64,000 nucleotides of DNA from a virus: the IMG/VR virus record IMGVR_UViG_3300043448_001007, positions 10,281 through 74,280 of that record; one strand, written 5' to 3'. The stretch's first letter is position 1, and each line of letters opens with the position of its first letter. This document shows, piece after piece, positions 14,294 to 64,000 of this stretch. The notes below the pieces were generated by a model. That model had not been told where the DNA came from. It searched no databases and saw nothing but the letters and a program-made list of their open reading frames with translations. A program made the position numbers and the translations under genes.

Positions 14294-14400
14294 AGCTTTC
14301 CTCCAAATATAATTTGAAATATATTCCCTATACAAAATCCAATTAATAGAGAAAATATAGAAAAGCAAGCTAATTGTGTAAATGTGTAGAGTGTTTCCAT
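14290..14400 (-). CDS. 36-aa membrane peptide translationally coupled to clpS (not in ORF track)
   Basis: METLYTFTQLACFSIFSLLIGFCIGNIFQIIFGGKL; TAATG overlap with the clpS stop. Confidence 0.5.
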   Translation of the reverse strand: METLYTFTQLACFSIFSLLIGFCIGNIFQIIFGGKL

Positions 14401-14678
14401 TAGTTCTTTTCCATTTTAACAGACAGACCAGCAGATTTAAGTTGTTCTTTCATTTTTTCAATTTCCTCTTTTGATCCATACTTAACATCACATTTACCTT
14501 TATAATGTACTATCATAGCACAATTTTCGGCCTGGGTAGATTCATGACCACATATTTTTATCAGACAGGTGATTACCCAATCAAATGTATTGTAATCATC
14601 ATTGCAGAGAATCAATACATATGGTTGTGAGATAATTTCTTCAACTTGTGTTTTTTCTAATGTTTTTGGTTGTATCAT
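14400..14678 (-). CDS. clpS: ATP-dependent Clp protease adaptor ClpS
   Basis: LCNDDYNTFDWVI, A..CAMIVHYKGKC.VK.G; the NTFD.VI/QAE.C form resembles Bacteroidota ClpS. Confidence 0.9.
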   Translation of the reverse strand: MIQPKTLEKTQVEEIISQPYVLILCNDDYNTFDWVITCLIKICGHESTQAENCAMIVHYKGKCDVKYGSKEEIEKMKEQLKSAGLSVKMEKN

Positions 14679-14770
14679 AATATTTATATATTAAATTTTT
14701 TAAGGAAGTTTTATTTTTTGATATATATAAAAACAAATTTACGTTTTTAAAAAAATAAAAACAAATTTTT

Positions 14771-40529: not shown

Positions 40530-43482
40530 ACTAAATAGTGATGGTACTTTAGATACTACCTTTAATAATGGTGGTTCTGGATTTGATAGTGGTTTATTTG
40601 AAATAAAATTACAAAATGATGGTAAAATATTAGTAGTTGGTTACTTTACAACTTATAATGGATCAGATTGTCAAGATAGGCTAGTTAGATTGAATACTGA
40701 TGGTACTTTAGATACTACATTTAATAATGGTGGATCTGGATTTGATGCTAATATAAATTCAATAACAATTCAACCAGATGATAAAATCTTAGTAAGTGGT
40801 TACTTCAATAATTATAATGGGGTTGATTGTCTAGATAATTTAGTTAGATTGAATACTGATGGTACTTTAGATACTACATTTAATAATGGTGGATCTGGAT
40901 TTAATGGTGGTGTGAACTTAACTAGAATTCAATCAGATGGTAAAATTTTGGTAAGTGGTTTTTTTACAACTTATAATGGAGCTGATTGTCCAGATGGATT
41001 TGTTAGATTAAATTCTAATGGTAGTTTGGATATAACATTTAATAATAGTGGGACTGGATTTAATACATATTTAAGTAAAATGTCAATTCAATCAGATGAT
41101 AAGATTATAGTAAGTGGAAGTTTTACAACTTATAATGGAGCTGATTGTCCAGATTATTTAGTTAGATTAAATAGTGATGGTAGTTTAGATGAATTATTTG
41201 AAGTTTTATTTATGTCACCACCTTCCATAAATTCCATTTCATTACAATCAGATGATAAGATTTTTATTGGTGGATATTTTACTACCAACAGTGGAATAAA
41301 CCACTTTATGAACTTAAATCCTGATGGTACATTAAATTCATTGGGGAATGTTAAAATACTTACTGACTATAATGGATTATTAAAATATGAAGATAATTAT
41401 CATTCTGTATATTCTGGTAGAACTTTAGTTGATAGAGAATATGTTGATGTTAGATTTGACTCGATTATTTCGGAGAACACATTAGCCAGCAATGGTTTGA
41501 CAAAAAATATTAATACTGTAGAGATAGGTGGTTCTATCTATAAGAATACTACTATTGATGGTGATTATGATTTTACTTTGGATAATAAGTCATTTAATTT
41601 ATTAAATATTACAGGCGGTTTTAATTATAATGAGACTGGTGTCTCTGGGAATGTAGTAAGGTATCTATATAATCAAACAGATAGTATTTTAATAGGTGGT
41701 GACTTTTTCTATTATAATGGAATTGATTGTCCTAACAATTTAATAAGAGTGAATAGAAATGGGTCTTTAGACACAACATTCAACAATGGTGGTTCTGGGT
41801 TCGATAATATTGTTTTATCAATAGATGTTCAAACAGATGGAAAAATATTAGTGGGTGGTAACTTTACAACCTATAATGGATCTAATTGTCCGGATAGATT
41901 TGTTAGATTGAATATGGATGGTACTTTAGATACTACCTTTAATAATGGTGGTTCTGGATTTAATAGTGCTGTTTGGTCAATATCTATTCAACCAGATGGA
42001 AAAATATTAGTGGGTGGTCAGTTTACATCGTATAATGGGATAAGTTGTCCTTGGGGATTAATTCGTTTAAATACAGATGGGTCTTTAGATACAACTTTTA
42101 ATAATGGTGGATCTGGATTTGTCAATGGTTCAATACGAGGTGGTATAATTGTTCAACCAGATGGTAAAATTTTAGTAGGTGGCTTTTTTACACAATATAA
42201 TGGGATCAATTGCCCAGATAATTTGGTTAGATTAAATAGTAATGGATCTTTAGATACCACTTTTAATAATGGTGGCTCTGGGTTTAATAGTGATGTTTAT
42301 TCAATATCTATTCAATCGGATGGGAAAATTTTAGTAGGTGGTAGTTTTACTCAATATAATGGATCTAATTGTCCCGATAAGTTAATTCGATTAAATAGTA
42401 ATGGTTCTTTAGATACCACTTTTAATAATGGCGGTACTGGATTCAATAATGATATTTGCACAATATCTATTCAAACAGATGGTAAAATTTTAGCAGGTGG
42501 TGATTTTACTACATATAATGGATCTGATTGCTCAGACAGATTAACTAGGTTAAATACTGATGGTAGTATTGATAATACCTTTATTTTTAGTGGATCTGGT
42601 GTTTTAATCTACAAAATTATTATACAACTAGATGGTAAAGTTTTAATGGGTGGTCTATATGGTTCTTTAGTAAGAATAAACCAAAATGGTAGTCAAGATC
42701 TCCCAACAAATGTTAAGGTATTTTTGGATAAAAATCACGGATTACTAAGATATGAAAATAATTATCATGAATTCTATACAAATAGAACACTAGTTGATAA
42801 AGAATATGTGGATCTATTATCATCAAACTACCTTAGTTTATCTGGTGGGACTATGAGTGGAACTATATCTTTTGGATTAAATAATCAATATTGTTTATCT
42901 GGTAGTGGTGTGATGGCTGGTATTACGTTTAGTAATAAAATATCTTTATCTGACAACTCGTTAATTTATCCTGGATATGGTGGTACTTTAATTGAATCAA
43001 AGTCAAGTGATTTTATAAGTAGATTATCTGTTAACTCTGAATATACTTTCTGGGATGTTAGGGGAACAATATCAACCAATGCTCCATTAGGTACAACATA
43101 TTCTAGAGGAACAATATTAATGTCAACTCTGGGTGGGATAGAAATAAAATACAATAACCCAGTAAAAACATCTAATATCCAATTAACTGATGGATATGTT
43201 GGTATTGTTGGAGTTGATATATACACAACAAGTTTATTGGAAGCTAGATTAAAAACAAATAGCTTAACAGATGATCGAGACTTTTCTTTCCCAGATTCAT
43301 CCGGAACATTCTCATTAATATCTGATTTTGGTCAATTAATGGTATATACAAATGCTACTAAACCAGCTGCTGCTACTAATGTTGGTAGATTAATATACAT
43401 ATCGGATATTGATGGTGGTATAGCGGCTATTAGTAATGGAACAGATTGGAAAAAAATGCATGATAATAGTATAATCGTCTAA
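40501..43482 (+). CDS. Fibre/adhesin with delta-60 (DUF5122-like) beta-propeller repeats
   Basis: About 12 copies of RLNxDGxLDTTFNNGGSGF...IQxDGKILVGG in two blocks; no proper start, begins mid-repeat. Confidence 0.75.
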   Translation: MNLIPDYLVRLNSDGTLDTTFNNGGSGFDSGLFEIKLQNDGKILVVGYFTTYNGSDCQDRLVRLNTDGTLDTTFNNGGSGFDANINSITIQPDDKILVSGYFNNYNGVDCLDNLVRLNTDGTLDTTFNNGGSGFNGGVNLTRIQSDGKILVSGFFTTYNGADCPDGFVRLNSNGSLDITFNNSGTGFNTYLSKMSIQSDDKIIVSGSFTTYNGADCPDYLVRLNSDGSLDELFEVLFMSPPSINSISLQSDDKIFIGGYFTTNSGINHFMNLNPDGTLNSLGNVKILTDYNGLLKYEDNYHSVYSGRTLVDREYVDVRFDSIISENTLASNGLTKNINTVEIGGSIYKNTTIDGDYDFTLDNKSFNLLNITGGFNYNETGVSGNVVRYLYNQTDSILIGGDFFYYNGIDCPNNLIRVNRNGSLDTTFNNGGSGFDNIVLSIDVQTDGKILVGGNFTTYNGSNCPDRFVRLNMDGTLDTTFNNGGSGFNSAVWSISIQPDGKILVGGQFTSYNGISCPWGLIRLNTDGSLDTTFNNGGSGFVNGSIRGGIIVQPDGKILVGGFFTQYNGINCPDNLVRLNSNGSLDTTFNNGGSGFNSDVYSISIQSDGKILVGGSFTQYNGSNCPDKLIRLNSNGSLDTTFNNGGTGFNNDICTISIQTDGKILAGGDFTTYNGSDCSDRLTRLNTDGSIDNTFIFSGSGVLIYKIIIQLDGKVLMGGLYGSLVRINQNGSQDLPTNVKVFLDKNHGLLRYENNYHEFYTNRTLVDKEYVDLLSSNYLSLSGGTMSGTISFGLNNQYCLSGSGVMAGITFSNKISLSDNSLIYPGYGGTLIESKSSDFISRLSVNSEYTFWDVRGTISTNAPLGTTYSRGTILMSTLGGIEIKYNNPVKTSNIQLTDGYVGIVGVDIYTTSLLEARLKTNSLTDDRDFSFPDSSGTFSLISDFGQLMVYTNATKPAAATNVGRLIYISDIDGGIAAISNGTDWKKMHDNSIIV

Positions 43483-49458: not shown

Positions 49459-51135
49459 ATGAGTTCTTATAATCCACTAAACAATCAAAATGGATACGCC
49501 TACATGAATTCGGCTGTAGAAAATAAAGGATTGTTTTCCAGAATACTTAGAAATATCTCAACTTGGGGAATGAATTATGATGATATGATATTAAGAAACC
49601 AAGTCGGCGTTAATATCAATGAAGATCCATATTCACAACAAGGTAGTTCAATGTATGATTTTTTCTCGAAAAGAGCAGTGGCGTCTGTTTTAAACAGAAA
49701 GTCAATTCCTTATTTAGATAGATCATATAGTGATAAGCGGAGAATTTTGAGAGAATATTCTATTAAAGATGAAATTAGGGATTATGTTTCTGTTGTTTGT
49801 GATGAAGCTATAATTTATCGAGATCGTAAATTTTGTAAACCCAGAAATTTATCAAATGATTTCCCACAAGAAATTAGAGATAAGTATTTAGAATATTTTG
49901 AAAGAATTTATAATAGATTTGGATTCTCTGATAGTATAACAGCTTGGGGATTAATGAAAGATTTCTTAATAGATGGTTATATTGCGATGGAAATTATATG
50001 GGATGATAAAAAGAAAAACATTATACATTTCAATAGATTAAGACCAGAAACTTTGGTACCTGCTTATGATCCAGCTATTGGTCACCTCTGGATTCAATTT
50101 CCGGATGATCCACAACTACGAAGAATATTTTTGGATTCACAAATAGTATTTATTTCATATGCTGCTCAAAATGATTATTCAGAAACATCTTATGTTGAAG
50201 GTTTAATTAAACCTTATAACCAATTAAAGATTTTAGAACAAGCTAAAATTATGTTTAATATAGTAAATGCAACATTACATCAAGTATTTACAATTCCAAC
50301 CAATGGTTTATCCAGACAAAAGGCTGAAGAACAAATAGGTCAGTTAATCCATGATTATTCAGAACAAGTAGAATGGGATGATAGTTTGGGAACATTACAA
50401 ATTAATGGTAGTAAACATTTAAATTATTGGAAACAAATCTGGTTCCCGGCTGGTGATGGAGGTACTCCAACAATGGAGTTGAGAAGTCCACAAGGAGCTA
50501 ACTTAAATGAAGATGATATGTTAAAATGGTTTCATAGAAATCTAAAAAGAGCTTCTAAAATACCATTACAAAGATTCGCTGATGATAGTGGTGGTGGAAA
50601 TTTAATTGTTGATTCTAGTAATATAACACATGATGAAATAAATTATCACAACTTTATATCAAGAATGCAAGCTAATTTTAAGGAATTGGTTTTAAAACCA
50701 TTAAAAATGCAACTTTTAGTTGAATTTCCAGAAATTAAAGATGATGAAAGATTATTAAATCAATTAGATGTTGAATTTTCAACAAATCAGTTTGTTGAGG
50801 CTTTAGAAAGACAAGCGATGATTGAGAAGAAAGCTGGTCTATTAACAACACTAATGAGTATTCAAAAAGCTGATGGTAAACCATACTTCCATGTTGATTA
50901 TTTAATGGATAAAGTTTGGGAGTTGACTGCCGAAGAAAAAGAAGAGAATAATAGATATTGGTTAAAAGATTCAGCTGGTGGTTCGGCTGAAGGTGGTGAT
51001 ATGGGTGGAGACGTTGGTGGTGATATGGGTGATATGGGTGATATGGGTGGAGAAGCTGGAATGGAATCTGGTGGTGAGATACCTCCTCCAGAAGGTGGTG
51101 GTGAATCCGAAACCGGAGGAGAATTTGAATTTTAA
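49459..51135 (+). CDS. gp20: Portal protein (gp20-like)
   Basis: VCDEAI, FLIDG, SYVEGLIKPYNQLKILE, LKRASKIP.QRF, ITHDEI. Confidence 0.92.
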   Translation: MSSYNPLNNQNGYAYMNSAVENKGLFSRILRNISTWGMNYDDMILRNQVGVNINEDPYSQQGSSMYDFFSKRAVASVLNRKSIPYLDRSYSDKRRILREYSIKDEIRDYVSVVCDEAIIYRDRKFCKPRNLSNDFPQEIRDKYLEYFERIYNRFGFSDSITAWGLMKDFLIDGYIAMEIIWDDKKKNIIHFNRLRPETLVPAYDPAIGHLWIQFPDDPQLRRIFLDSQIVFISYAAQNDYSETSYVEGLIKPYNQLKILEQAKIMFNIVNATLHQVFTIPTNGLSRQKAEEQIGQLIHDYSEQVEWDDSLGTLQINGSKHLNYWKQIWFPAGDGGTPTMELRSPQGANLNEDDMLKWFHRNLKRASKIPLQRFADDSGGGNLIVDSSNITHDEINYHNFISRMQANFKELVLKPLKMQLLVEFPEIKDDERLLNQLDVEFSTNQFVEALERQAMIEKKAGLLTTLMSIQKADGKPYFHVDYLMDKVWELTAEEKEENNRYWLKDSAGGSAEGGDMGGDVGGDMGDMGDMGGEAGMESGGEIPPPEGGGESETGGEFEF

Positions 51136-51569: not shown

Positions 51570-51909
51570 TACTTTTTTTCATTTTATTAAATAATTCAAT
51601 ATTCTGTATTGGATAATCACACCCCCAATTTTCATTAAGAGTCCTCTTCCTTTTCACCTCAGAACATTTTCGACAATAATAGTACCCCCAAGTATTATTA
51701 TATTTGACATAATTTTTAAAAATAACATCCTTAACTACATTACAATTTAATCCATCACATTTACATGTAATTTTGTAACAAGATCCGGGTGTTAAAAACT
51801 CAATCGGTATTAATATCTCATCACCAATCATTACATCATATCCCAAATCTTCAAAATATTGGTAGTTGGATTCAATTATTTTTACTTTTATTTCTCTTGT
51901 TAAAATCAT
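51517..51909 (-). CDS. Zn-binding endonuclease-associated domain protein (no nuclease core)
   Basis: CKCD..C, YYCRKC, single 'ENWGCDYP' repeat like those of the Hef-like paralogs. Confidence 0.55.
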   Translation of the reverse strand: MILTREIKVKIIESNYQYFEDLGYDVMIGDEILIPIEFLTPGSCYKITCKCDGLNCNVVKDVIFKNYVKYNNTWGYYYCRKCSEVKRKRTLNENWGCDYPIQNIELFNKMKKSIVENLYERKKSRNKSRD

Positions 51910-53393
51910 AATATTATTTCATATTTTATTTTACCACAATCCCAAATTTTTGGGATTTCTAATTCAGATTCACTTATTCCAGTAATTGACCTTTTAAAAT
52001 TTGATTTATGGATTCTTTCACCATCAAAAACATATTTATAGTCTGGATTACTTTCATTTACCTTTTCAAATTTTAATTTAGTATATAGATCACCACGGCT
52101 CCAATCTCGATCAGCATAACTTATTATTCTGATTGGTTTATAATTTTTAATAAAATAATTAAGTAATTTTGAAGCACCACCTATAACATTAAATCCAATC
52201 TTATTACAAAATCTATTTAAATTCCATTCTCCATAATTCATTTTCTTACGACCTTCAAATTGATCAAATGTCATTAAACAAACCAACTCTTCATTGTGAA
52301 ATAAACCTATTTTAATTTTTGAATTTGACCAACCTTGGATATGATTATTGTTTAAAAATTTTTTAACTAATTCTATATCATCAATTTCCTTAATAATACA
52401 ATTTCTAGATCCAATTTTTGAACTTAATTTTAAAAGATTTCCTATTTGACTTTCAATTATACTTTTTCTATGATTCCAATCATCTTCCCAAAAATGGATT
52501 AATCTAATTCCCTGTGATTCGAAAAATTTTGTCTTTTCTAAATGGAAATTTTTATCCTTATATATCTCAGAATGCCAATATATACCATTGAACTCAAATC
52601 CTATTTTCTCGGATGGTAGAAATATATCAATTTCTTTATTACCAATTTTATAATTTTGTATTATTTCCCCATTATATATTGATTTTATAAAGTTAAATAG
52701 GTTTATCTCACCACCAGATTGATGACCATTTATTTTATTACAAATTGTGCATAATATTGTTTTATATTTAATCCTTTTATGGAATAAATCAATATCTATT
52801 TCAAAATCATGTTCTTTATTGTTATCACATCTAAATAAAGATATTCCATTTTCCTTATAAGATAAATAATTTTTATGATTAGCAATTTTAAAATTGTTTT
52901 TTCTAAAAATTTCACTTTTTTTGTTATTTGATGCCCCCCAATTTTCTAAATATTTTTTAGCTTTGAGATCTTTTACTTCTCTGGATTGTGAAACATTTTC
53001 AACTCCCCATCTATCTAAATTTGTTGATTTTTGTTTATTTAAAACTTCTTTATTTTTTAAATGATGTTCAACACCAAACTTTTTAATATTATTCTCTTTT
53101 ATTTTTATTTGAATATCTTTTGATTGTGATACAAACTCAACACCTCTTTTCTCTAAGTTGGTCTTTTTTGACTTTTCTTTGATATTATCTAATTGGAATA
53201 CGTTTTCAACTCCCCATTTTTCTAAATTATTCTTCTTTAATTTACATTTTTTACACAAATACTCACCATTACAATATCCATATGATGTATATAATTTGAA
53301 TTTTATCTTTTTATCAATACCACATGAATCACAGACTACCTCTATTTCAGTATTACTCCATTTTCCAATACTATCTATATTAGTTTTAATCAT
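51906..53393 (-). CDS. Hef-like homing endonuclease
   Basis: EKWGVEN repeats; EIDIFLP..GFEFNGIYWHS; FWEDDW; RFC..GGASKL; SYAD; IWDCG. Confidence 0.75.
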   Translation of the reverse strand: MIKTNIDSIGKWSNTEIEVVCDSCGIDKKIKFKLYTSYGYCNGEYLCKKCKLKKNNLEKWGVENVFQLDNIKEKSKKTNLEKRGVEFVSQSKDIQIKIKENNIKKFGVEHHLKNKEVLNKQKSTNLDRWGVENVSQSREVKDLKAKKYLENWGASNNKKSEIFRKNNFKIANHKNYLSYKENGISLFRCDNNKEHDFEIDIDLFHKRIKYKTILCTICNKINGHQSGGEINLFNFIKSIYNGEIIQNYKIGNKEIDIFLPSEKIGFEFNGIYWHSEIYKDKNFHLEKTKFFESQGIRLIHFWEDDWNHRKSIIESQIGNLLKLSSKIGSRNCIIKEIDDIELVKKFLNNNHIQGWSNSKIKIGLFHNEELVCLMTFDQFEGRKKMNYGEWNLNRFCNKIGFNVIGGASKLLNYFIKNYKPIRIISYADRDWSRGDLYTKLKFEKVNESNPDYKYVFDGERIHKSNFKRSITGISESELEIPKIWDCGKIKYEIIL

Positions 53394-53532: not shown

Positions 53533-55635
53533 ATGAAACCTATATTAATCGTAGAGAACAACACAAATCCTCTTTCGTTAAATGAAAATTTAAGTGGAAA
53601 GGATAAGTATGTTCTTTCAGGACCATTCACTGAATTTGATATCGTGAATAGAAATGAAAGAGTTTATACTGCTAATAAGTTCTTACCAGCTCTTCAAGAG
53701 TTGAATGAAAGAATTAAACAATTGGGTGTTGTGTATGGTGAGTTCGATCATCCCGACGTCTTTGACACATCATTACAAAGAGCATCTCACATTATCACTA
53801 AAGCTTCTTTTATGAAAGAAAGTAATAGAGTTGATGGTGAGATTCGTTTACTAACTACCTATTGGGGTAAAGAAGCAAGAGCTTTAGTTGATGATGGATG
53901 TCCTATTTTTGTTTCCTCAAGAGCTGCTGGTATTACTGAGTCTGATGGAAGTGTATCATTAAAGAAATTATTTACTTATGATATTGTTGCAGATCCTGGA
54001 TTTGCATCAGCTAAAATGTCTGTAAAGCCATTGAATGAATCATTAGGGTATAATTTAAATAAATCTAACTTTAGGATATATGAAATGTCCGACGAGTCAA
54101 AAATCAATCAATTATTTATGAATAACAATAATGATTTTGTTACAAAGAAACAATTGACCGATTACTCTAAGTATCTAATCAATGAGATAGCATCAACTAA
54201 AAAAGAAGTTAAGTCTGCTGTATCTGAAGGTAAAATGGATCCTAAGCAATTGGAAAAATTGTTAGAGTACTATGAAGAGTTGAATAAAACTAATACTGAC
54301 ATTGTTAAGTATTTGGATTATTTGGCTAATAAAGTACAAGTGGTAGTTAATGAGAATAAGTCATTAAAATCTACTACAGATCGTTTGATCAAACATAACG
54401 ATTATATCGTTGAAAATCTTGAAAAAACAATTAACTATTCTGAGTATGTAGCTGAGAAAGTTGATAAAAACATCTCCTATTCTGAGTATGTAGCTGAGCA
54501 ATTGGATAAAAATATTGCATATTCTGAATATGTAGCAGAACAAGTTGATAAAAACATTGCTTATTCTGAATATGTAGCAGAACAATTAGATAAAAACATC
54601 GCTTATGCTGAATATATCGCTGAGAATGTTGATAAAAACATTGCTTATTCTGAATATGTAGCAGAACAAGTTGATAGTTCTATCGCTTATTCTGAATATT
54701 TAGCTGAACATGTTGAAGGAAATATTGCTTATGCTGAATATATCGCTGAGAATTTAGATGATAATATCGCTTATTCTGAGTATATCGCAGAAAGTTTAGA
54801 TAAATCAGTTTCTTACCAAGCTCTTATTGTTGAGAAATTGAATAACAAGAAAAATAAATTAAATGAAAATGCTGAATATGATCCATTACCAACTCCAGAA
54901 GAAGTAGGTTTTGAAGATGAATCAGAAGAAGAAAATGAATTTGGTGATGAAAACGAATTCCCTTCTGAAGATGAAACTCCAGCATTGGTTGAATTCGATG
55001 AAGAAGAACATTCTTTAGTTGATTCTGATGATGAGTGTGAACCTTGTGGTGATGACTATTCAGAAGAAGAAGAAGTTTTAGGTGAAGAAGAAGTTACTAC
55101 ATTCGAAGGAAACTCTGATACAGAATTATCAAAATCTATTGATAAATTAATCGAAGAAGCTAAAAAACGAAAAGCTGCTGAATCTTCAGACGTTCATTTT
55201 TTAAAATTCTTAAATAAATCTCAGGTTGATAGTTTCTATGGCTTAACAAACGAAGAGCAAGAATCTGTTAAACTTTACATAAGCGAAAAAAGTTTCTTTA
55301 CACAAAAAGATGTGTTGAGATTAATATCTGAGGCTTTATCTACTAAGAATGAATCGTTAGAGGAACGAATTATCCGAATGATGCCTGATTCTATCAAGCC
55401 AATTTGGAACCAATTAAATGAGAGTAATAGAAAATCAATTTTATCTCAGTCTAGATTATTCCCTGCGGAAGTTCTACAAACTGAATCACAAATTGAGCAC
55501 TTCTGGAATACTCGTAATTTAAAGAAAAATGAATCTGTAACTAAGAAGTTAGTTTCTCACGAAGCTTTGATCCAAGAAGATAAAGTTTCTAATGATGAAA
55601 TGAAAGCTATTATGGAAAGATTCAAAAATATTTAA
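53533..55635 (+). CDS. gp21: Prohead protease (gp21-like) fused to scaffold with 14-aa repeats
   Basis: NRNERVY, GEFDHP, SSRAAG, TYDIVADPGF; coiled-coil and acidic C-terminal part. Confidence 0.9.
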   Translation: MKPILIVENNTNPLSLNENLSGKDKYVLSGPFTEFDIVNRNERVYTANKFLPALQELNERIKQLGVVYGEFDHPDVFDTSLQRASHIITKASFMKESNRVDGEIRLLTTYWGKEARALVDDGCPIFVSSRAAGITESDGSVSLKKLFTYDIVADPGFASAKMSVKPLNESLGYNLNKSNFRIYEMSDESKINQLFMNNNNDFVTKKQLTDYSKYLINEIASTKKEVKSAVSEGKMDPKQLEKLLEYYEELNKTNTDIVKYLDYLANKVQVVVNENKSLKSTTDRLIKHNDYIVENLEKTINYSEYVAEKVDKNISYSEYVAEQLDKNIAYSEYVAEQVDKNIAYSEYVAEQLDKNIAYAEYIAENVDKNIAYSEYVAEQVDSSIAYSEYLAEHVEGNIAYAEYIAENLDDNIAYSEYIAESLDKSVSYQALIVEKLNNKKNKLNENAEYDPLPTPEEVGFEDESEEENEFGDENEFPSEDETPALVEFDEEEHSLVDSDDECEPCGDDYSEEEEVLGEEEVTTFEGNSDTELSKSIDKLIEEAKKRKAAESSDVHFLKFLNKSQVDSFYGLTNEEQESVKLYISEKSFFTQKDVLRLISEALSTKNESLEERIIRMMPDSIKPIWNQLNESNRKSILSQSRLFPAEVLQTESQIEHFWNTRNLKKNESVTKKLVSHEALIQEDKVSNDEMKAIMERFKNI
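54436..54813 (+). repeat. Nine 42-bp tandem coding repeats (Y[SA]EY[VIL]AE...NIA)
   Basis: Visible in both DNA and protein. Confidence 0.9.
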
Positions 55636-55676: not shown

Positions 55677-57353
55677 ATGTCACACATTAGAATAGACAAA
55701 TCAAAAGCAACAAAAAAATGGGGTCCTGTATTGGAAAATATGGGTATCTCTGGCGAAAGAGTTGAATGGATGTCAGAATTAGCTGAATATCACCAAATCA
55801 ATGAAAACGCTTATGCTAACGCTACTACAGCTGGTATGGGTGCAGTAGTAAATCCAAATATGGCTGGTATCTTCCCTGGTAATGCTGGTGGATACTCTAA
55901 CTCAGCATTAGGTTCAGGAGACGTTGGTCAGAACTTATTACCTGTAGCTATGAAAATCGCTGGTCAAACTATCGGTTTAGACTTAGTAGCAGTAAAACCT
56001 TCTCCAGGTCCAAAAATTGACTTGATTTATATCGATTTCCAATATGATGATTTATCTGATGTTGGTGGTATGTCAAGACCTCAAGTATTCAAAATCACTA
56101 ATGCATCTGCTAATGTTAAAGCATCAATCGGTGCAGCTTTAACAGCTAATCCAGCTATTAAATTAACACAAGGTGGTTTACAAGGTGGTAGATTATTCGT
56201 TAATACTATTAAAGTTAGTGCTGCTCTTGTAAATGCTGAACCAACTGGTTCTAAAGAAGGTGTTTTAGAATTCTTAGGATTCTCTCGTATTGATGGTCAT
56301 CCAATGTTCAAAGCTTATCGTCAAGCTAACTCTACTCCAGTAGGTGCTGGTGTATATCCTTACACTTTTGATCAAAAATTAAACACATTCAATCCAACTC
56401 AATCAATGGTTGATCAAATTTTATTCATTGGTACTGCTTCAGCAACTGCTTCAGCAATTGAATTAGTATCTGCTCTTGAAGATCACTTACCTGGTTTCTC
56501 TGCAAACTGGTCATCTAAAGTATCTTCTGGTGATTATCCAATGGATAGAGCAACTGATGATAATACATACTCTGGTATCATCGGACCTAAAGTATCTTCT
56601 AAATCAATCGCTGTTGGTACTGTTGAAGTATCTACTGCATTAAGAAGAACTGAAATTGAAGATATCAAAGCTAATACTGGTATGGATATCGTTCAAAAAA
56701 TGGAATCTATCTTAGTTAATGAGTTGTCTCAAACAATCTCTAAACAAATTGTAGCTAAAATATTTGAATTGGGTGATTTGAATAGACAATCAGCTCCTTT
56801 AGCTGGTTCTGCTACTTCAGTTACAGCAACTGCTTCAACTATTTTTGACTTAAACACTACTTATGCAAATGTAATTGGTGGTGAAACTACACACGCTGTA
56901 CAAAGAAAGTTAATCACTAAAATGGTTCACGCTTCTAACTACATCGCTACTGAAGGTCGTGTAGGTCCTGCACAATTTGCAATCACTAATGGTGGTTTAG
57001 CTGCATCTTTAATGGATATCGCAGGATATACTATTAACCCAGTTAAATCTAAATTAAATGGTTCTGGTCAATTGTATCCAGTAGGTACTATCGGTGATAT
57101 TCAAATCTATGTAGATCCATATCAAAGATATAATGATAACAGAATTGTTATCGGTAGAAAAAACAACCCTGATCAACCAGGTTTAATTTTCGTACCTTAC
57201 TTGATGGCTCAGTCAATCAGTGTAATCTCTGAAGCAACTTTCGCACCTCGTATGTTGTTGAGATCTAGATACGCTATCGCAGACGTTGGATTCTTCCCAC
57301 AAAAACAATATATGACTATCGTAGTTGAAGATGCCGCTGGTTACTTAAACTAA
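55677..57353 (+). CDS. gp23: Major capsid protein (gp23-like)
   Basis: KW.PVLE, IG.DLV.V.P, LVNELSQ.I.K.I, YVDPY, PGLIFVPY, FAPRMLLRSRYA. Confidence 0.93.
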   Translation: MSHIRIDKSKATKKWGPVLENMGISGERVEWMSELAEYHQINENAYANATTAGMGAVVNPNMAGIFPGNAGGYSNSALGSGDVGQNLLPVAMKIAGQTIGLDLVAVKPSPGPKIDLIYIDFQYDDLSDVGGMSRPQVFKITNASANVKASIGAALTANPAIKLTQGGLQGGRLFVNTIKVSAALVNAEPTGSKEGVLEFLGFSRIDGHPMFKAYRQANSTPVGAGVYPYTFDQKLNTFNPTQSMVDQILFIGTASATASAIELVSALEDHLPGFSANWSSKVSSGDYPMDRATDDNTYSGIIGPKVSSKSIAVGTVEVSTALRRTEIEDIKANTGMDIVQKMESILVNELSQTISKQIVAKIFELGDLNRQSAPLAGSATSVTATASTIFDLNTTYANVIGGETTHAVQRKLITKMVHASNYIATEGRVGPAQFAITNGGLAASLMDIAGYTINPVKSKLNGSGQLYPVGTIGDIQIYVDPYQRYNDNRIVIGRKNNPDQPGLIFVPYLMAQSISVISEATFAPRMLLRSRYAIADVGFFPQKQYMTIVVEDAAGYLN

Positions 57354-57377: not shown

Positions 57378-57406
57378 AAAAACCCACTCAATTGAGTGGG
57401 TTTTTT
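57378..57406 (+). terminator. Terminator
   Basis: AAAAACCCACTCAATTGAGTGGGTTTTTT. Confidence 0.85.
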
Positions 57407-57469: not shown

Positions 57470-59512
57470 ATGAATTCAGAAAAAATTAAAAAGATAGAAT
57501 CGATTGTTGAAGACAAAACAGTTAGGTTAAGAGAATCCTATTGGATTAATAATTATAGTGAATTTCATAAAGAAGTATCAGATTATATTAATTTAGATAT
57601 ACCATTTATTCAAAAATTATGGCATTGGGTTAATGATTATCCAAATGAGTTTAAATGTTTATGTGGTAATAAAACATCATTTAATAGAAATTGGAAAGAT
57701 GGTTATAAGAAATTTTGTTCAACAAAATGTTCATATAAGGATTCAAATACTTTAGAAAAGAGAAAAAAAACAACTTTGGATAAATGGGGGGTTGAGAATG
57801 TTGCTCAATCTAAAAAAATTAAAGAAAAAACAGAAAAAACAAATTTAAAAAGATATGGAACTAAATCATCATTCCAAAATAAAGATGTTAGAGAAAAATT
57901 TAAAAGAAATTATCAAGAAAAACACGGAGTTGATCACCCATTTAAGAATGACGAAGTAAAAGATAAGATTAAACATTCCAATAATATAAAGTTTGGTAAA
58001 GACTATTATACACAAACAGATGAATTTATTTTAAAGTCAAAAATAACAAATAATTTGAAGTTTGGAAAGGATTACTATACACAAACAAATGAATTCAAAG
58101 AAAGATTAATTAAAATATCAAATGAAAAATGGGGTGTTGATAGTTATTTACAAACAGATGAATTAAGAAATATATTAAAAGACAATAAAGATTTAATTAT
58201 TGAAAAGTCAAAAAAGACTAGCTTAGATAATTGGGGAGTTGAATTCTATACACAATCTGAAGATTATAAAAATAAATCAATTAACTTTAATAGAGCTGAC
58301 CAACAAAAGATTAGAAAAACAAATTTAGAGAAATGGGGTAAAGAATATTACACTCAAACAGATGAGTGGAAGGAAAATATGATTAAACACAATCAAGAAA
58401 AATATGGTAAGGATTGGTATTCACAAACAGATGGATTTAAAGATGTTATTAAACTACAAATAGATAAGTTTAAAGAACTTAAATGGATAAAATCAAAGGA
58501 GTATTATAAAAATTGTGGATTTGAATTATTATCGAAAAAAGGAGAGTTTGTTGAATTGGTAAGTGATTCTTGTGGTCATACTTTTAGTATTTATCGAGAC
58601 ACTTTTTATAAAAGATATGGTGAATATAATATTAATCCTTGTATTATATGTAATCCATTAAATTCTGGAGTGTCTGGCTTAGAATTGGAAGTCGTAGATT
58701 GGTTAAAATCATTAAATATTAATATTGAGACTAATAATAGATCATTGATTGATGGATTTGAATTAGATATAGTAATACCAGATCAAAAAATTGCTATTGA
58801 ATTTAATGGATTATATTGGCATTCAGAGTTCTATAAAGAAAAGAACTACCATTCATTAAAAACAGATTTATGTAAAAATATTGGATTTAGATTGATTCAT
58901 ATTTGGGAAGATGATTGGAAAAATAAGAATGAAATAGTTAAATCAATAATTTTAAACTCGATCAATAAAATAGATAAAAAAGTTTGGGCTAGAAAATGTA
59001 ATATTAAAGAAGTTGATAGTAAGTCAGTTAGAATTTTTTTAGATAGTAATCATATTCAAGGTAATTGTCAATCTAGTTTAAGATATGGGTTATATCTTGG
59101 AGATGAATTGATATCATTAATGACATTTGGTTCTAGATATATTAATGGTAAATCATCTTATGAATTATTAAGGTTTTGTAATAAGATAGGATATTCCATT
59201 GTTGGGGGTGCTTCTAAATTATTTAGTCATTTTTTAAAAAATTGTGAGGAAAGTGAAATTGTGTCATATGCTGACCTTTCTATATTTGATGGTTATTTAT
59301 ATAAAACATTGGGATTTAAATTCATACATAGAAGTAATATAAATTATTGGTGGGTTGTTAATGGAAAAAGACATCATAGATTTAATTTCTCTAAGAAAAG
59401 ATTAGTTAAGTTAGGATATGATAAAAGTTTAACAGCTGATTCTATTCTACATTCAATAGGGGCTTATAAAATATTCGGTTGTGGTCAAGATCGATATGTT
59501 TATAAAAGATAA
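57470..59512 (+). CDS. Hef-like homing endonuclease with expanded K(W/Y/F)G..YYTQT repeats
   Basis: About nine 'EKWGV/KFGKDYYTQT' repeats; ELDIVIP..AIEFNGLYWHS; WEDDW; RFC..GGAS; SYAD. Confidence 0.75.
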   Translation: MNSEKIKKIESIVEDKTVRLRESYWINNYSEFHKEVSDYINLDIPFIQKLWHWVNDYPNEFKCLCGNKTSFNRNWKDGYKKFCSTKCSYKDSNTLEKRKKTTLDKWGVENVAQSKKIKEKTEKTNLKRYGTKSSFQNKDVREKFKRNYQEKHGVDHPFKNDEVKDKIKHSNNIKFGKDYYTQTDEFILKSKITNNLKFGKDYYTQTNEFKERLIKISNEKWGVDSYLQTDELRNILKDNKDLIIEKSKKTSLDNWGVEFYTQSEDYKNKSINFNRADQQKIRKTNLEKWGKEYYTQTDEWKENMIKHNQEKYGKDWYSQTDGFKDVIKLQIDKFKELKWIKSKEYYKNCGFELLSKKGEFVELVSDSCGHTFSIYRDTFYKRYGEYNINPCIICNPLNSGVSGLELEVVDWLKSLNINIETNNRSLIDGFELDIVIPDQKIAIEFNGLYWHSEFYKEKNYHSLKTDLCKNIGFRLIHIWEDDWKNKNEIVKSIILNSINKIDKKVWARKCNIKEVDSKSVRIFLDSNHIQGNCQSSLRYGLYLGDELISLMTFGSRYINGKSSYELLRFCNKIGYSIVGGASKLFSHFLKNCEESEIVSYADLSIFDGYLYKTLGFKFIHRSNINYWWVVNGKRHHRFNFSKKRLVKLGYDKSLTADSILHSIGAYKIFGCGQDRYVYKR

Positions 59513-59536
59513 TTTTTCAAATTAATATATACTGAT

Positions 59537-60814
59537 ATGAAATATTTAAAATCTTATAAAAAATACAATGAGGATGTTGCATTTGCTTCAACAGCTGGTA
59601 TGGGATCCGTTTCAAATTCACAACCAGGTGGATTTGCTGGTGATGTTTCAGGATCAACTCCCGGATCCGGTGATATACCCTTCTATTTAAAAAGAAATAA
59701 AGGGAAAAAAGGAAGTCCAAGCGAGGTTAGTGATTTAAGAGATTTGGAAGAAGTTGATGTTGAAGAAATTGATGACTTAAAAGAAGGATTTATTTTTGAA
59801 AATAAATCTGACATAAGATATAATTGGGTAGTTTTATATTTTGATAATATTAAAAAATTTAGTAATGGTGAAACAGGTCAATTATTAGATATTTTTTGGG
59901 CTGAGGATATGAATGAATTATATCATATTTTAAAAGATAATATATTTGATAATGAGGATGAAGAATTAACATATACAAATATTCCATATGATGAATGGTG
60001 TGGTTGGGCTAATGAATATAAAATTATTAGAGCTGGAGAAAAAGAACCAAGATTTCAAATTTGTTTAGATTCTGATAATTGTTGGAATGATTTCCTAGAC
60101 TTCTATAATAATGCTCCATTAAATGAAAATAAAGTAGTTAATTTTAAAGTATTTGAAAGTTCAAATAAATATAATTGGTTAATAACCTATCAGGATTATG
60201 ATAGTGATGAGGAAAATATCATTTGGTGTGAAGATATGAATGATGTTTATAAATCTATTAAAGGAAACCTATTTATCGATGAGGAAAATGAAATTGATGA
60301 AACTAATATTCCATATAGTGAGTGGCATGGTGGTAATGTCTATATAAAAATCTATAAATATGGTCAAAATCACGAATCCTTTCAAATCCATTTACAATCA
60401 GATGATACTTGGAACGATTTCTTAATTTTTTATAATGAAGTTCCATTAAATGAGAGTAAAAAGAAGTTTCCAAATATTAAAAAGATGGAAATTGATGGAT
60501 TTGAGGTTCTGATGGGTAAAGATGCTGATTCAAACGATTATTTAACTATTCAAATGAGAAAAGATGGGGATTTGTGGTTCCATGCACATGGATTTCCAGG
60601 ATCTCATATAATTTTAAGATGTGGTGATAGAATTCCGGATCAAAATACTAAAAAGAAAGTGGCGGAATTGGCCGCTAAGAATTCAAAGGCATCTGGATTG
60701 GCTACTGTAATATGTTGTCCAATTAATTTAGTTAAAAAGGAGTCTGGTTCAAATCCAGGGAAAGTTAAGATAGAAGATAGTCTTAATATTGAGAAAATAG
60801 ATATTAATCTATAA
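59537..60814 (+). CDS. Multidomain protein: targeting-like N-terminus, two ~100-aa duplicated acidic domains, C-terminal NFACT-R (DUF814) RNA-binding domain
   Basis: DGFEVLMGKDADSNDYLT...DLWFHAHGFPGSHIILR...AELAA.NSK is the NFACT-R signature of RqcH/FbpA. Confidence 0.8.
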   Translation: MKYLKSYKKYNEDVAFASTAGMGSVSNSQPGGFAGDVSGSTPGSGDIPFYLKRNKGKKGSPSEVSDLRDLEEVDVEEIDDLKEGFIFENKSDIRYNWVVLYFDNIKKFSNGETGQLLDIFWAEDMNELYHILKDNIFDNEDEELTYTNIPYDEWCGWANEYKIIRAGEKEPRFQICLDSDNCWNDFLDFYNNAPLNENKVVNFKVFESSNKYNWLITYQDYDSDEENIIWCEDMNDVYKSIKGNLFIDEENEIDETNIPYSEWHGGNVYIKIYKYGQNHESFQIHLQSDDTWNDFLIFYNEVPLNESKKKFPNIKKMEIDGFEVLMGKDADSNDYLTIQMRKDGDLWFHAHGFPGSHIILRCGDRIPDQNTKKKVAELAAKNSKASGLATVICCPINLVKKESGSNPGKVKIEDSLNIEKIDINL

Positions 60815-60821
60815 TTAAATT

Positions 60822-60830
60822 TAATATATA
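60822..60830 (+). promoter_or_regulatory. Representative phage late promoter TAATATATA (>20 copies in window)
   Basis: Other copies: plus strand 3355, 15860, 18251, 20284, 25202, 29246, 32469, 38349, 40195, 44411, 46507, 48671, 59523; minus strand 3318, 8978, 9617, 10638, 11281, 14685, 17350, 27285, 32401. Confidence 0.8.
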
Positions 60831-60834
60831 CTAA

Positions 60835-62208
60835 ATGGGACCATTAATAAAATACACCGACAGATTATATGATATATTTGATGAAATTGGTGGTAAAATT
60901 GCACAGAAGTTGATAATGTTGGAGGGTGATCCGAGTGTTATGAATGATTATTATGCTAAACTTATAGATATTTCAGAAGATGATTATTGTTTTGATCTTA
61001 CGATTGAGGATAATATTGAACCAGTTAAGATTGGATCTTTTGTTAGACATTTTTTGGAAAAAACTTGGACTGATCAAGAGTTTTTTGATTTCACAACAAG
61101 ATATAATGAATTGAAGGGTAAATATTTTAAGAAGAAAGAATTGGCTTATGGTTATTCTAAAGGAAGTAAAAAAGATGAAAGGGTTATATCTGGAACTCCA
61201 ATTGAAGTACCACCATTTAGTTTTAACCCTAAAGATGTTAGATCAACTTTCATTTCATTGGTAACAGAAACATATCCACATGGACATGAGGAAGAAGTTG
61301 TTCCTTTTATTAAAGATATTGGACTAAATAAAGATAAGTTTGGTAATTATTATAAAATAGTTGGTAATTCAACTACTATGTTTACTTCTCACTTAGATAC
61401 TGCTGATCGTAAGAAATCTAAAGTTGTTCTTTTAAGTGAATTAAAAGGAGGTGATGAAATTATTAAAACTGATGGATCAACTATTTTAGGGGCAGATGAT
61501 AAAGCTGGTGTTACTGTAATGTTATATATGATTTCTCACCAAGTTCCGGGATTATATTATTTCTTTATTGGTGAAGAAAGAGGTGGTATCGGCTCGTATA
61601 AATTAGCTGATTCTTATGATTCATTTCCATATTTAAAAAATATTAAAAAATGTATATCATTTGATAGACGAAATACTGTTTCTGTAATAACAAGTCAATT
61701 GGGTAGAGTTTGTTGCTCAGATACATTTGCTCAAAGATTGTGTGATGAGTATTCAAAATCTGGACTTAAATTAAGCTTGGATAATACTGGTGTGTATACT
61801 GATTCTGCTTCATTTATTGATAATATTTCAGAGTGTACTAATATATCTGTTGGGTATATGAATGAACATACAATTAATGAAACACAGAATATAACCTATT
61901 TAGAGAAACTGGCTAAGGCATCTGTTTCTGTTAATTGGGATAGTCTACCTAATACAAGAAAGGCTGGATTATCAGATGAAATTAAAAGAAAATATGGTAA
62001 GTTTTTGAGTGATTTAAGAAAGTGTAAAATAGATATGAATTGGGAATTAATTGGGGAAGATGGTGTGGCTAATATATGGGTGGAAATGGAAGGAACACTA
62101 CATGATGCTCATTTAGATTTAATGATTTTGGAAGATTTGTGTAATCGACATAAAATAGATCCAACAATAACCTTTGATACTTACTATTTCAAAATGGAAT
62201 TAAAATAA
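60835..62208 (+). CDS. M28/M20-clan zinc peptidase
   Basis: SHLDT, GADDKAG, GEERG, SFDR, YTDS, GY.NEH. Confidence 0.85.
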   Translation: MGPLIKYTDRLYDIFDEIGGKIAQKLIMLEGDPSVMNDYYAKLIDISEDDYCFDLTIEDNIEPVKIGSFVRHFLEKTWTDQEFFDFTTRYNELKGKYFKKKELAYGYSKGSKKDERVISGTPIEVPPFSFNPKDVRSTFISLVTETYPHGHEEEVVPFIKDIGLNKDKFGNYYKIVGNSTTMFTSHLDTADRKKSKVVLLSELKGGDEIIKTDGSTILGADDKAGVTVMLYMISHQVPGLYYFFIGEERGGIGSYKLADSYDSFPYLKNIKKCISFDRRNTVSVITSQLGRVCCSDTFAQRLCDEYSKSGLKLSLDNTGVYTDSASFIDNISECTNISVGYMNEHTINETQNITYLEKLAKASVSVNWDSLPNTRKAGLSDEIKRKYGKFLSDLRKCKIDMNWELIGEDGVANIWVEMEGTLHDAHLDLMILEDLCNRHKIDPTITFDTYYFKMELK

Positions 62209-62218
62209 TTTATAATAT

Positions 62219-62641
62219 ATGATTAAGAACTGGAAACTATTTAAAGAGAAGTATGATGAGGTAGATGACTCTGATTGGGATATTGAAGATGATGATTATG
62301 AACCATCTGAAGAAGATTTAGAAGATATCTTGGATGATAATGATATTGATTTAGAGATTGAAAATCTATGTTCGTTAATTCGTAAATATTTGAAAAATTC
62401 AGATCTATCATCATTAGTAGAATATAAAGATGGTGATTTAACTATTTATATATTTTTGGAAAAAAAGGAGAAGATCGGGTTATTAACTTCAATCCTGGAA
62501 GTTTTAAAAAATCTTCATAATGATATACTACCGGAATATGAAAGTAGTGTTGAACTATATCAAAATAAAACCAAAGAACCACTTTTGATTATTTCTTTAT
62601 ATAGAGATGATGAGGGTGATGGGGATAAAAATAAAAAATAA
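62219..62641 (+). CDS. Acidic protein with 'MIKNWKLFKE' N-terminus
   Basis: D/E-rich N-terminal half. Confidence 0.7.
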   Translation: MIKNWKLFKEKYDEVDDSDWDIEDDDYEPSEEDLEDILDDNDIDLEIENLCSLIRKYLKNSDLSSLVEYKDGDLTIYIFLEKKEKIGLLTSILEVLKNLHNDILPEYESSVELYQNKTKEPLLIISLYRDDEGDGDKNKK

Positions 62642-62642
62642 T

Positions 62643-63056
62643 ATGAGATATTTAAAAAAATTCGATTTTTATATTATTGAAAATGTAGAACAACTATCAT
62701 TAAAATACATCAGACCTGATGTAACTGATGATATGGGTTGGAGGAAACCAGGAATGGCAGATTGGGGTGTATTTAAAAATGATGAGTTAGTTGCTGTTTT
62801 TTATTTAGATGATGAAAAACCTGATCTTTATATAAGAGGATTTGAAATAAAAGAAGATTTTAGAGGTAAGGGTTATGGAAAAAAAGTTTTGGACTTGATA
62901 AAGTCATATGCTAAATCGAAAAAGTTTAAATTCTTAACTCTGAATTTTTATAAATCAAATAAAGTAGCTGAACATCTTTATAGGAGTTACGGTTTCTTTG
63001 ATGATACTAAGCAATTTCCAGAATCACCTGTTATTAATCTAAGAATGAAAATTTAA
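62643..63056 (+). CDS. GNAT acetyltransferase
   Basis: FRGKGYGKKVL acetyl-CoA motif and N..A..LY.SYGF; start moved to ATG 62643 (MRYLKKFD). Confidence 0.85.
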   Translation: MRYLKKFDFYIIENVEQLSLKYIRPDVTDDMGWRKPGMADWGVFKNDELVAVFYLDDEKPDLYIRGFEIKEDFRGKGYGKKVLDLIKSYAKSKKFKFLTLNFYKSNKVAEHLYRSYGFFDDTKQFPESPVINLRMKI

Positions 63057-63101
63057 ACTTTTTCTGTTTTTTATATATAATATATATAATCACAAATTAA
63101 C

Positions 63102-63468
63102 GGGGATGTCTAGGCATTTGATTTGTTATTGAGTGGTAATTGTGCAAGCATCGGTTTGATAGCGTCCGATTAAAATAAACTGTTAAACAATAAACGCAAC
63201 TTCTAACGAAGTAGGAACCGCTGAAGACTTAGTAAGCGCCCTAAGAAACAACCAATTAGCGAAAGCTGAATTAGTTTAGTACTAAGATTAACTCACAATC
63301 TAAAAGAGAGAAAGATATCTTACATCTATAAAGAAAGAAATAGTTAGATGATCCAGTTCTATTTAAAAACGATCTATGTTTTGAAATTTTTCGAAAAAAA
63401 TTCTAAGCTTGTAAATGAATAGTTATTGACTTGTAATGAAAACCGCGGTTCGAGTCCGCGCATCTCCA
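63102..63468 (+). ncRNA. ssrA: tmRNA
   Basis: Acceptor stem GGGGATG/CATCTCC-A with a G3:U pair; T-arm CGCGG-TTCGAGT-CCGCG; about 367 nt; internal tag ORF; followed by a terminator. Confidence 0.92.
63196..63279 (+). other. tmRNA tag reading frame: (A)ATSNEVGTAEDLVSALRNNQLAKAELV*
   Basis: Resume codon GCA after ATAAAC; TAG at 63277-63279. Confidence 0.7.
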
Positions 63469-63470
63469 CT

Positions 63471-63494
63471 AAAACCTCCACTAGGAGGTTTTTT
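63471..63494 (+). terminator. Terminator after tmRNA
   Basis: AAAACCTCC-ACTA-GGAGGTTTTT. Confidence 0.85.
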
Positions 63495-63512
63495 ATTTTT
63501 AAAATTATTTTG

Positions 63513-63520
63513 TATATTTG
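63513..63520 (+). promoter_or_regulatory. Bacteroidota sigma-A -7 element
   Basis: TATATTTG upstream of ATG 63538. Confidence 0.55.
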
Positions 63521-63537
63521 TGATAAATAATAAATTT

Positions 63538-64000
63538 ATGATATTCTTATTACCATCTCTTGATAATACACTACGACAAGTAGATCCAAACTTTGAAGGC
63601 GAATACCAAACTATTAAAACATTAGGATCAAATGTATATCTATTTCACCATGATGGATTTATATATGATGGTAATATAAAAACAAACCTTCCAAACCAAA
63701 CAGAAAAAACCGAAATAATACTTAGATCTTGGATGTTAAAACCATTTGAATATGAGAATTTATGGAACTTTCTTAATGATAAAAATTATACTTTAATAAA
63801 CAATCCAGAACAATATTTAAATGCTCATTACTATTCAAGATCATATCCTCTATTAAAGGATATAATGGCTCCATCTAAAATACTTTTAAATTGGGATAGT
63901 GAAACATTATTGAATAATAAACCATCTGAAAGTTTTATAATCAAAGACTTGGTAAAATCTGAAAAAGATTGTTTTATTATTCCTGTTGATAATGAAAATA
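63538..64000 (+). CDS. ATP-grasp (R2K/DUF4343-like) protein, 3'-truncated
   Basis: VDPNFEGEY, LRSWML...Y, LINNPEQY..AHY....YP, FIIKD.VKSEK. Confidence 0.65.
   Translation, partial: MIFLLPSLDNTLRQVDPNFEGEYQTIKTLGSNVYLFHHDGFIYDGNIKTNLPNQTEKTEIILRSWMLKPFEYENLWNFLNDKNYTLINNPEQYLNAHYYSRSYPLLKDIMAPSKILLNWDSETLLNNKPSESFIIKDLVKSEKDCFIIPVDNEN

Follow-up and report, generated by a model that had tools for sequence, protein, structure and literature searches.

A solo NFACT-R protein, a clan MH peptidase and an acidic protein are co-inherited with a tmRNA beside the head genes of a megaphage clade

The window analysed here is a stretch of 64,000 nucleotides that corresponds to bases 10281-74280 of the 74,280-bp IMG/VR virus record IMGVR_UViG_3300043448_001007, whose completeness is estimated at 16%, and it is a fragment of a freshwater Mahaphage-type megaphage. 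Four of its products, a protein with a solo NFACT-R domain, a peptidase of clan MH, an acidic partner protein and a transfer-messenger RNA (tmRNA), are firmly shown here to belong to a block that is co-inherited across a large megaphage clade. It is equally firmly shown that in some lineages a fusion links the peptidase physically to the acidic protein, and that the tmRNA of the window is genuine. The reading that we favour, to which we give a probability of about 40%, is that of a ribosome- or tRNA-tethered exopeptidase working beside phage-specific trans-translation.

An earlier note, made from the letters of this DNA alone, had placed an NFACT-R protein, a zinc peptidase, an acidic protein, a GNAT acetyltransferase and a tmRNA in succession on one strand, with a ClpS gene elsewhere, and this layout is confirmed. 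The + strand encodes the NFACT-R protein (425 residues, 59537..60814, Pfam NFACT-R_1), the clan MH di-zinc (amino)peptidase (457 residues, 60835..62208, phrog_4191 with an E-value of 2.5e-66), the acidic protein (140 residues, 62219..62641, isoelectric point 4.2, 28.6% Asp+Glu), the GNAT acetyltransferase (62607..63056, likely start 62643, PF00583 with an E-value of 1.2e-12), which overlaps the 3' end of the acidic gene, and the one-piece tmRNA (63102..63471, with its end at 63469 or 63471, found by ARAGORN and Rfam RF00023). Intergenic gaps within the cluster measure 10-45 nt, and a terminator-like hairpin followed by a T-run (63471..63492, + strand) closes the block after the tmRNA. The ClpS gene is located on the - strand at 14400..14678 and matches PF02617 (E 6.4e-20, 71.2 bits against a cut-off of 23).

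A block co-inherited with a tmRNA

IMG/VR was scanned with the peptidase, which yielded 187 matching stretches; 80 loci were kept, representing 56 distinct peptidase sequences of 45-79% identity. Upstream gene order was counted in the 53 relatives having at least 2.5 kb upstream, and the tmRNA in the 48 having at least 1.5 kb downstream. Upstream of the peptidase, the capsid gene is found in 49 of the 53 relatives and the NFACT-R gene stands directly before the peptidase in 49/53, and tblastn detects the acidic gene behind the peptidase in 39 of 48 relatives. The published genome LR756502.1 shows the same gene order. The NFACT-R protein, the peptidase, the acidic protein and the tmRNA are therefore nearly always together, as would be expected from the cluster proposed in the earlier note. 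The other two members of that proposal fare differently: no relative has GNAT at the locus, not even the closest one (79% peptidase identity), and only weak paralogues occur at remote loci, and ClpS is conserved but unlinked, being present in 5/5 larger relatives at 20-41 kb from the capsid gene.

The block is also informative where it has been rearranged. In one lineage (loci L086-L088), about 13 kb of DNA, including an IS605-type transposase gene, separate the capsid gene from the peptidase, and no NFACT-R gene was found in the 227-kb and 110-kb records of this lineage; the peptidase, a small acidic protein and the tmRNA nevertheless stay adjacent. In five other loci (L011, L012, L021, L023 and L073), one open reading frame encodes both the peptidase and the acidic protein. 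Finally, a protein of 499 residues (P0059), encoded on a 629-kb contig, is an in-frame fusion of NFACT-R and peptidase with 46% identity to the peptidase of the window, the two parts being joined via nine codons of former intergenic spacer. As this last fusion was seen only once, we give it modest weight.

The tmRNA of the window scores 50.4 bits with Rfam RF00023, against a gathering score of 47, over the full model (positions 1-374), and is also detected by ARAGORN. Its acceptor stem (GGGGATG/CATCTCC) is paired at 7/7 positions, including the G3:U70 pair that marks alanine identity, and the T-arm has the canonical form (CGCGG-TTCGAGT-CCGCG). The tag frame (63196-63279) opens with a GCA resume codon and runs over 27 codons to a TAG stop. 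The encoded tag ends in AELV, and those of relatives end in LEVA, LAVA, LVVA or PELV, which differ from the usual ALAA-type ClpXP degron, a C-terminus that is typical of tmRNA tags and not strictly defining. The 3' end of the RNA reads ACTA; as CTA follows the discriminator, CCA is not encoded and has to be added. Contigs of 206-319 nt in metatranscriptome assemblies, from three runs belonging to three studies, match 63116-63467 with zero mismatches. They all stop inside the predicted ends of the tmRNA, give no levels, and could include DNA carry-over. Contigs of these RNA libraries cover the capsid gene and the tmRNA and not the 5.7 kb between them, an absence of cover that carries no evidential weight.

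Among the relatives, ARAGORN sees a tmRNA at only a few loci, and Rfam RF00023 finds none in five large relatives, nor any in the loci of three of these even at E<=1. A profile was thus built from the six detectable tmRNAs of the clade and used with nhmmer to find the remaining homologues. With this profile, a full-length tmRNA homologue is found in 48/48 relatives, and one is also found in LR756502.1. In 34 of the 48 it lies within 1.2 kb of the peptidase on the same strand, and in the remainder it is up to 5.3 kb off. Among the homologues, 46/48 have a fully paired 7/7 acceptor stem with G3:U70, compensatory changes are seen at acceptor pairs 5 (A5-U/G5-C) and 6 (U6-A/C6-G), and about 45 distinct tmRNAs keep the tag core NEVGT.EDLVAALQNN and its frame. 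Only eight of the 48 encode CCA. The T-loop of most relatives is non-canonical, with for instance GCAGTAC in place of TTCGAAT, and this probably explains the failures of ARAGORN and Rfam. Standard tools therefore overlook most tmRNAs of this clade (at all but a few loci for ARAGORN, in every relative tested for Rfam), in loci L003-L089, for example at L067:9933-10280 and L085:10206-10554, and at L090:11006-11356, so that censuses of phage translation genes undercount them.

The tmRNA partner SmpB, tRNAs and RNA-repair genes had been named in the earlier note as companions to look for in the rest of the genome. SmpB was not found in the 74-kb record, but strong SmpB genes are present in four of the five larger relatives, where they adjoin tRNA arrays far from the head block. 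Neither tRNAs nor RNA-repair genes were found in the record, with no search specific to RNA-repair families. Phage tmRNAs have been reported in huge phages (Al-Shayeb et al., 2020, PMC7162821), in phage G (PMC12484599) and in Bxz1-type mycobacteriophages (PMC4131195); the association of tmRNA and SmpB in huge phages is already published (PMC7162821), and tags ending in VA are known from phage G (PMC12484599).

Proteins, transcription signals and surroundings of the block

The NFACT-R domain occupies residues 319-412 of its protein (nt 60491-60772) and matches Pfam NFACT-R_1 with an E-value of 1.3e-10 and 42.3 bits, against a cut-off of 29.8. Its matches in the PDB are RqcH chains and a fragment of pneumococcal FBPS (E about 1e-11), and it aligns with residues 456-550 of B. 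subtilis RqcH (E about 2e-11). The motifs D-x-W-x-H and GxPGSH are invariant in 29 phage NFACT-R relatives. In RqcH, mutation of the DWH motif abolishes binding to the 50S subunit, and NFACT-R contacts the A-site finger, H38, of 50S (bioRxiv 10.1101/2020.09.03.281279). By Pfam, NFACT-R is the only one of the RqcH parts present, as no NFACT-N, helix-hairpin-helix (HhH) or coiled-coil part was found, and the NCBIfam models of RqcH and EfbA match only through their C-terminal 100 positions, far under their cut-offs. Since NFACT-N, HhH and coiled-coil are lacking, the phage protein is not an RqcH and cannot be an alanine-tailing factor.

In relatives, NFACT-R is usually a stand-alone protein of 127-132 residues. 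In the window it is preceded by two repeats of 110 residues (about residues 87-310, 45% identity, E 3e-28) and, at the N-terminus, by a capsid-like segment: residues 1-52 (nt 59537-59692) align with capsid residues 32-83 (nt 55770-55925) with 44% identity and an E-value of 4e-8. The aligned stretch covers the conserved junction of the capsid protein, in which ...NE precedes and ..A.[ST]TAGMG.V...GSGD follows the putative cut. Both the repeats and the capsid-like N-terminus are restricted to the phage of the window and its closest relative, L002, and look-ups in the ESM Atlas gave no usable lead for the repeats or for the N-domain of the peptidase. An exhaustive profile search retrieved about 35 phage-type NFACT-R clusters and then thousands of full-length RqcH-like proteins, whose C-termini are the nearest cellular relatives of the domain (36-47% identity). 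As these are scattered over many phyla, they indicate neither a donor nor a host. The Bacteroides thetaiotaomicron genome used as a control has neither a member of the NFACT-R family nor ClpS; some metagenome-assembled genomes of Bacteroidota carry NFACT-R proteins.

Three parts can be told apart in the peptidase: an N-domain (residues 1-95), the catalytic core (about 120-370) and, at the end, a C-domain (380-457). No Pfam family matches the protein at E<=0.01. Residues H186, D188, D221, E247, E248, D277 and H345 are invariant in 35 peptidase sequences and align to the motifs of PepT. An AlphaFold model (mean predicted local distance difference test score 83.6) is matched by Foldseek, with a probability of 1.00, to M42 TET1 (best, E 7e-11), PepT and a deblocking aminopeptidase. 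The earlier description as a zinc peptidase of family M28 is thus borne out for the di-zinc ligands and fold of clan MH and not for M28 specifically: no profile of that family matches, and the best sequence and fold matches are to M20B and M42, even though some GenBank records label phage homologues M28. On the strength of the model and motifs, 'clan MH aminopeptidase-like' is a justified name. Homologues of the core are found in many small phages, and each megaphage has several paralogues. LR756501.1 and LR756504.1 (L091 and L092) have four to six core paralogues, some in tandem, outside the head module and without NFACT-R.

The acidic protein is modelled as a disordered acidic N-half followed by an alpha/beta C-domain of 85 residues, for which the fold search returned only generic alpha/beta matches within noise. 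The candidates, a permuted S6 (best Z 9.0) and tail-terminator proteins (Z about 7), are at noise level, and no call was made. A homology between this protein and the C-domain of the peptidase was rejected (profile-profile probability 1.3%). In most acidic relatives (L004, L009, L015-L089) the C-terminus consists of an acidic run and then [AVM]-P-F, whereas the proteins of the window and of L002 end in ...GDKNKK. The acidic run and PF tip may resemble the tip of the SSB tail. As for the two proteins outside the conserved block, the acetyltransferase scores 48.6 bits with PF00583 (cut-off 20.7) and 34.7 with the RimI model (cut-off 86.4), so that by equivalog score it would be a generic GNAT and not RimI. 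The ClpS of the window reads NDDY...VHYKGK, which would contain the counterparts of the N-degron pocket residues N34, D35, D36 and H66 of E. coli ClpS.

The motif TAATATATA could be a promoter element common to these genes. It is present in 30 copies in the window where 7.9 are expected, an over-representation of about four times. On the + strand it is found at 59523..59531, 6 nt before the NFACT-R start codon, at 60822..60830, 5 nt before the peptidase start codon, and at 63078..63086, 16 nt before the 5' end of the tmRNA; further examples on the - strand are at 14685, which precedes ClpS, 8978 and 9617. It is placed 5-8 nt before the starts of NFACT-R, the peptidase, ClpS and several enzymes, a spacing that would give leaderless or near-leaderless mRNAs, and 16-29 nt before other genes. 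Its presence before the tmRNA, which is untranslated, argues for a transcription signal and not for a ribosome-binding signal. A 'late' class was considered for TAATATATA and is not shown, a PHROG scan of ten motif-bearing genes having named only a homing endonuclease. In relatives, conserved AT-rich TATTATATATACATTTGTA-like elements lie 20-30 nt upstream of the tmRNA and contain a box that we take to resemble the Bacteroidetes -7 consensus TAnnTTTG. Such elements are consistent with a Bacteroidota host.

The cluster is the distal end of a T4-like head-gene block, composed of a gp20-type portal gene (49459-51135, Portal_T4), a gene for an S77/gp21-type protease fused to a scaffold-like region (53533-55635) and the gene of the gp23-type capsid protein (55677-57353). 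The + strand has terminator-like hairpins at two places only, one behind the capsid gene (57378-57405) and one behind the tmRNA. A strain-specific homing endonuclease gene (57470..59512, + strand, phrog_3339, E 1.5e-124) lies between the capsid gene and the cluster; it has two paralogues in the window at 25231-26910(+) and 51906-53393(-), making three genes of the phrog_3339/DUF7487 type with a restriction-endonuclease-like core. They are inserted beside conserved structural genes, at positions that vary among relatives, and as most relatives have none at this site, NFACT-R there follows the capsid gene directly. GNAT and the homing endonuclease are strain-specific inserts outside the conserved block, and probably recent ones. 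Upstream of the portal gene are also found a protein of the LOG/SLOG family ('possible lysine decarboxylase', PF03641; 45777-46460, - strand) and a protein of 800 residues with eight DUF5122 beta-propeller repeats (41080-43482, + strand).

The G+C content of the window is 27.8%. DNA near-identical to it comes mainly from freshwater and freshwater-sediment metagenomes, and a megablast of 59000-64000 against GenBank phages gave no near relative. At the protein level, the nearest named relatives are the 'Mahaphage' genomes LR745206.1 and LR756502.1, of 634-642 kb, whose hosts are Bacteroidetes according to Al-Shayeb et al. (PMC7162821).

Possible roles of the block

One way to account for this association is that the tmRNA and SmpB, which is encoded elsewhere in complete relatives, would free ribosomes stalled on phage or damaged mRNAs, the stalled chains receiving a tag of about 27-29 residues that is peculiar to the phage. 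The three proteins of the block would form a single complex, in which NFACT-R could anchor the other two on the large subunit, or on a tRNA-like RNA, for example the tmRNA itself, and the tethered peptidase might trim or recycle incomplete chains. All members would be made from the same promoter class, beside the capsid gene, ClpS being a separate, clade-wide gene. We favour this ribosome-tethered peptidase on the basis of the only characterised role of NFACT-R, of the fusions, and of the improbability that parts of both bacterial stalled-ribosome pathways should meet by chance. If the four parts do cooperate, this would be the first viral system assembled from pieces of the two pathways, and a natural experiment on an NFACT-R domain acting alone. 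A conserved link of a solo NFACT-R and a dedicated peptidase to a tmRNA was not found in the literature searched.

Several points weigh against this scenario. The link of the three proteins to ribosomes or to the tmRNA is one that we infer, and the portal, protease and capsid genes keep their order across the clade just as well, so that common descent could by itself account for the adjacency. Three of the 56 distinct relatives (L005, L030 and L038) have the tmRNA in inverted orientation at a distance of 3-5 kb, one lineage has apparently lost NFACT-R, and the NFACT-R-peptidase fusion is single and could be a sequencing error. An aminopeptidase targets N-termini and not a C-terminal tag, and in RqcH the site of NFACT-R is turned towards the subunit interface, a long way from where the peptide emerges. 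Finally, the N-termini resemble capsid-targeting propeptides, and the peptidase family is also present in small podophages and Thermus phages. More specifically, the block might constitute a third, virus-specific form of ribosome-associated quality control, with a solo NFACT-R that docks on the large subunit or on the tRNA-like domain of the tmRNA and carries a di-zinc exopeptidase and an acidic regulator there, and with a tmRNA whose long, conserved tag is read by phage factors and not by host ClpXP, but this narrower proposal seems to us rather unlikely.

The propeptide-like N-termini lead to the main alternative, which is doubtful as it stands and has to be taken seriously, namely that NFACT-R, the acidic protein and some peptidases are capsid cargo, targeted to the prohead by an N-terminal peptide, cleaved after Glu by a gp21-type protease and, as with the internal proteins of T4, ejected with the DNA, the tmRNA being just the next gene. 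The genes do lie immediately downstream of the gp23-type capsid gene, and the gp20-type portal and the S77 protease-scaffold fusion belong to the same module; in T4 a capsid-targeting sequence of ten residues and cleavage at L/I-x-E are established (PMC9026906). The N-termini of NFACT-R and of the acidic protein fit the pattern M-[IK]-K-x-[FY]-x-x-[FY]-x-E, and some peptidases start with MKLFKFxQxFE. The capsid proteins of the clade have in common a putative junction with INE before and NAYANATTAGMG after the cut, and it is a 52-residue copy of this junction and of the capsid N-arm that begins the NFACT-R protein of the window. Against this, the strict pattern is found in only 5/60 N-termini, compared with 5/349 internal Met positions, and most peptidases are without a targeting peptide. 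In fused or long forms the 'targeting' peptide stays internal and may thus be a structural element, and the attachment of the tmRNA is left unexplained where the block is displaced from the capsid gene. A role as cargo and a ribosome-tethered peptidase are not mutually exclusive, as injected proteins could act on host ribosomes early in infection.

Alternatively, the genes could be neighbours by descent only, kept together because the head module rarely recombines, with each working alone: the tmRNA in trans-translation, the peptidase in peptide turnover or amino-acid supply, and NFACT-R in some unrelated RNA binding. The collinearity of portal, protease and capsid, which matches that of the cluster, would then need no further explanation, nor would the inserts tolerated between members (the homing endonuclease, GNAT, the 13-kb segment), the tmRNAs displaced or inverted in some relatives, the remoteness of SmpB and the tRNA arrays in complete relatives, or the several peptidase paralogues that each megaphage has in other contexts. 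We nevertheless think such mere neighbourhood unlikely, since five peptidase-acidic fusions and one NFACT-R-peptidase fusion argue for physical cooperation, and it is difficult to put down to coincidence that two elements characterised only in the two bacterial stalled-ribosome pathways are neighbours in 48/48 relatives.

The model put forward in the earlier note was broader, a single system rewiring both N-degrons, through ClpS, aminopeptidase and GNAT, and C-terminal tagging, so that translation continues under defences that cleave mRNA or tRNA. All its parts exist, and ClpS is conserved in the clade, with TAATATATA close to its start codon like NFACT-R and the peptidase. This model is all the same very unlikely: relatives lack GNAT at the locus and the protein itself is a generic one, ClpS is 20-41 kb away, nothing ties the peptidase to the creation of N-degrons, and the record yielded neither the tRNAs nor, with no search specific to their families, the RNA-repair genes mentioned above. 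Lastly, a decoy role, in which the solo NFACT-R would occupy the RqcH site on free 50S and block the alanine-tailing quality control of the host, agrees with a DWH 50S-binding motif that is kept while NFACT-N, HhH and coiled-coil, on which tailing depends, are lacking, and with nearest cellular relatives that are C-terminal domains of full-length RqcH-like proteins, but is highly improbable, as it leaves the linkage and fusion to the peptidase unexplained and as the absence of NFACT-R from the B. thetaiotaomicron control suggests that the presumed host phylum may often lack RqcH.

Comparison with known systems

With one-piece tmRNA (SsrA) of bacteria and phages, the tmRNA described here shares a tRNA-like domain with G3:U70, a T-arm, an internal tag frame started by GCA, and SmpB in complete relatives. 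It differs from a typical SsrA by its 27-residue tag, which ends in ELV (LEVA, LAVA or LVVA in relatives) and not in ALAA, by a CCA that is not encoded, by the location of its gene at the end of the head block and, in most relatives, by its escape from ARAGORN and, where tested, from Rfam.

The peptidase resembles those of clan MH (M42 TET, M20B peptidase T and M28) by its HxD, GADDK, GEE, D and H motifs and its catalytic fold. Unlike PepT and TET, it has neither a PepT-type lid insert nor a TET-type PDZ-like insert, and unlike the known families of the clan it has no Pfam match, extra N- and C-domains, and an acidic partner to which it is sometimes fused. As regards the internal proteins of T4, the likeness consists in a nearby protease of the gp21 family, short amphipathic N-terminal peptides ending in hydrophobic-x-Glu, and genes in the head module; the motif is different, however, and is kept internally in fused forms, and packaging is putative for the megaphage proteins.

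Finally, the phage NFACT-R protein shares with RqcH and NEMF the NFACT-R domain and its D-x-W-x-H and GSH motifs, but is without NFACT-N, HhH and coiled-coil/M, being a solo protein of 129 residues in relatives and an extended one in the window. The eukaryotic solo proteins CCDC25 and Jlp2 likewise have NFACT-R without the rest of NEMF, but their sequence similarity to the phage protein is marginal (E 0.2). The phage NFACT-R probably originated independently of CCDC25 and Jlp2, from the C-terminus of a bacterial RqcH.

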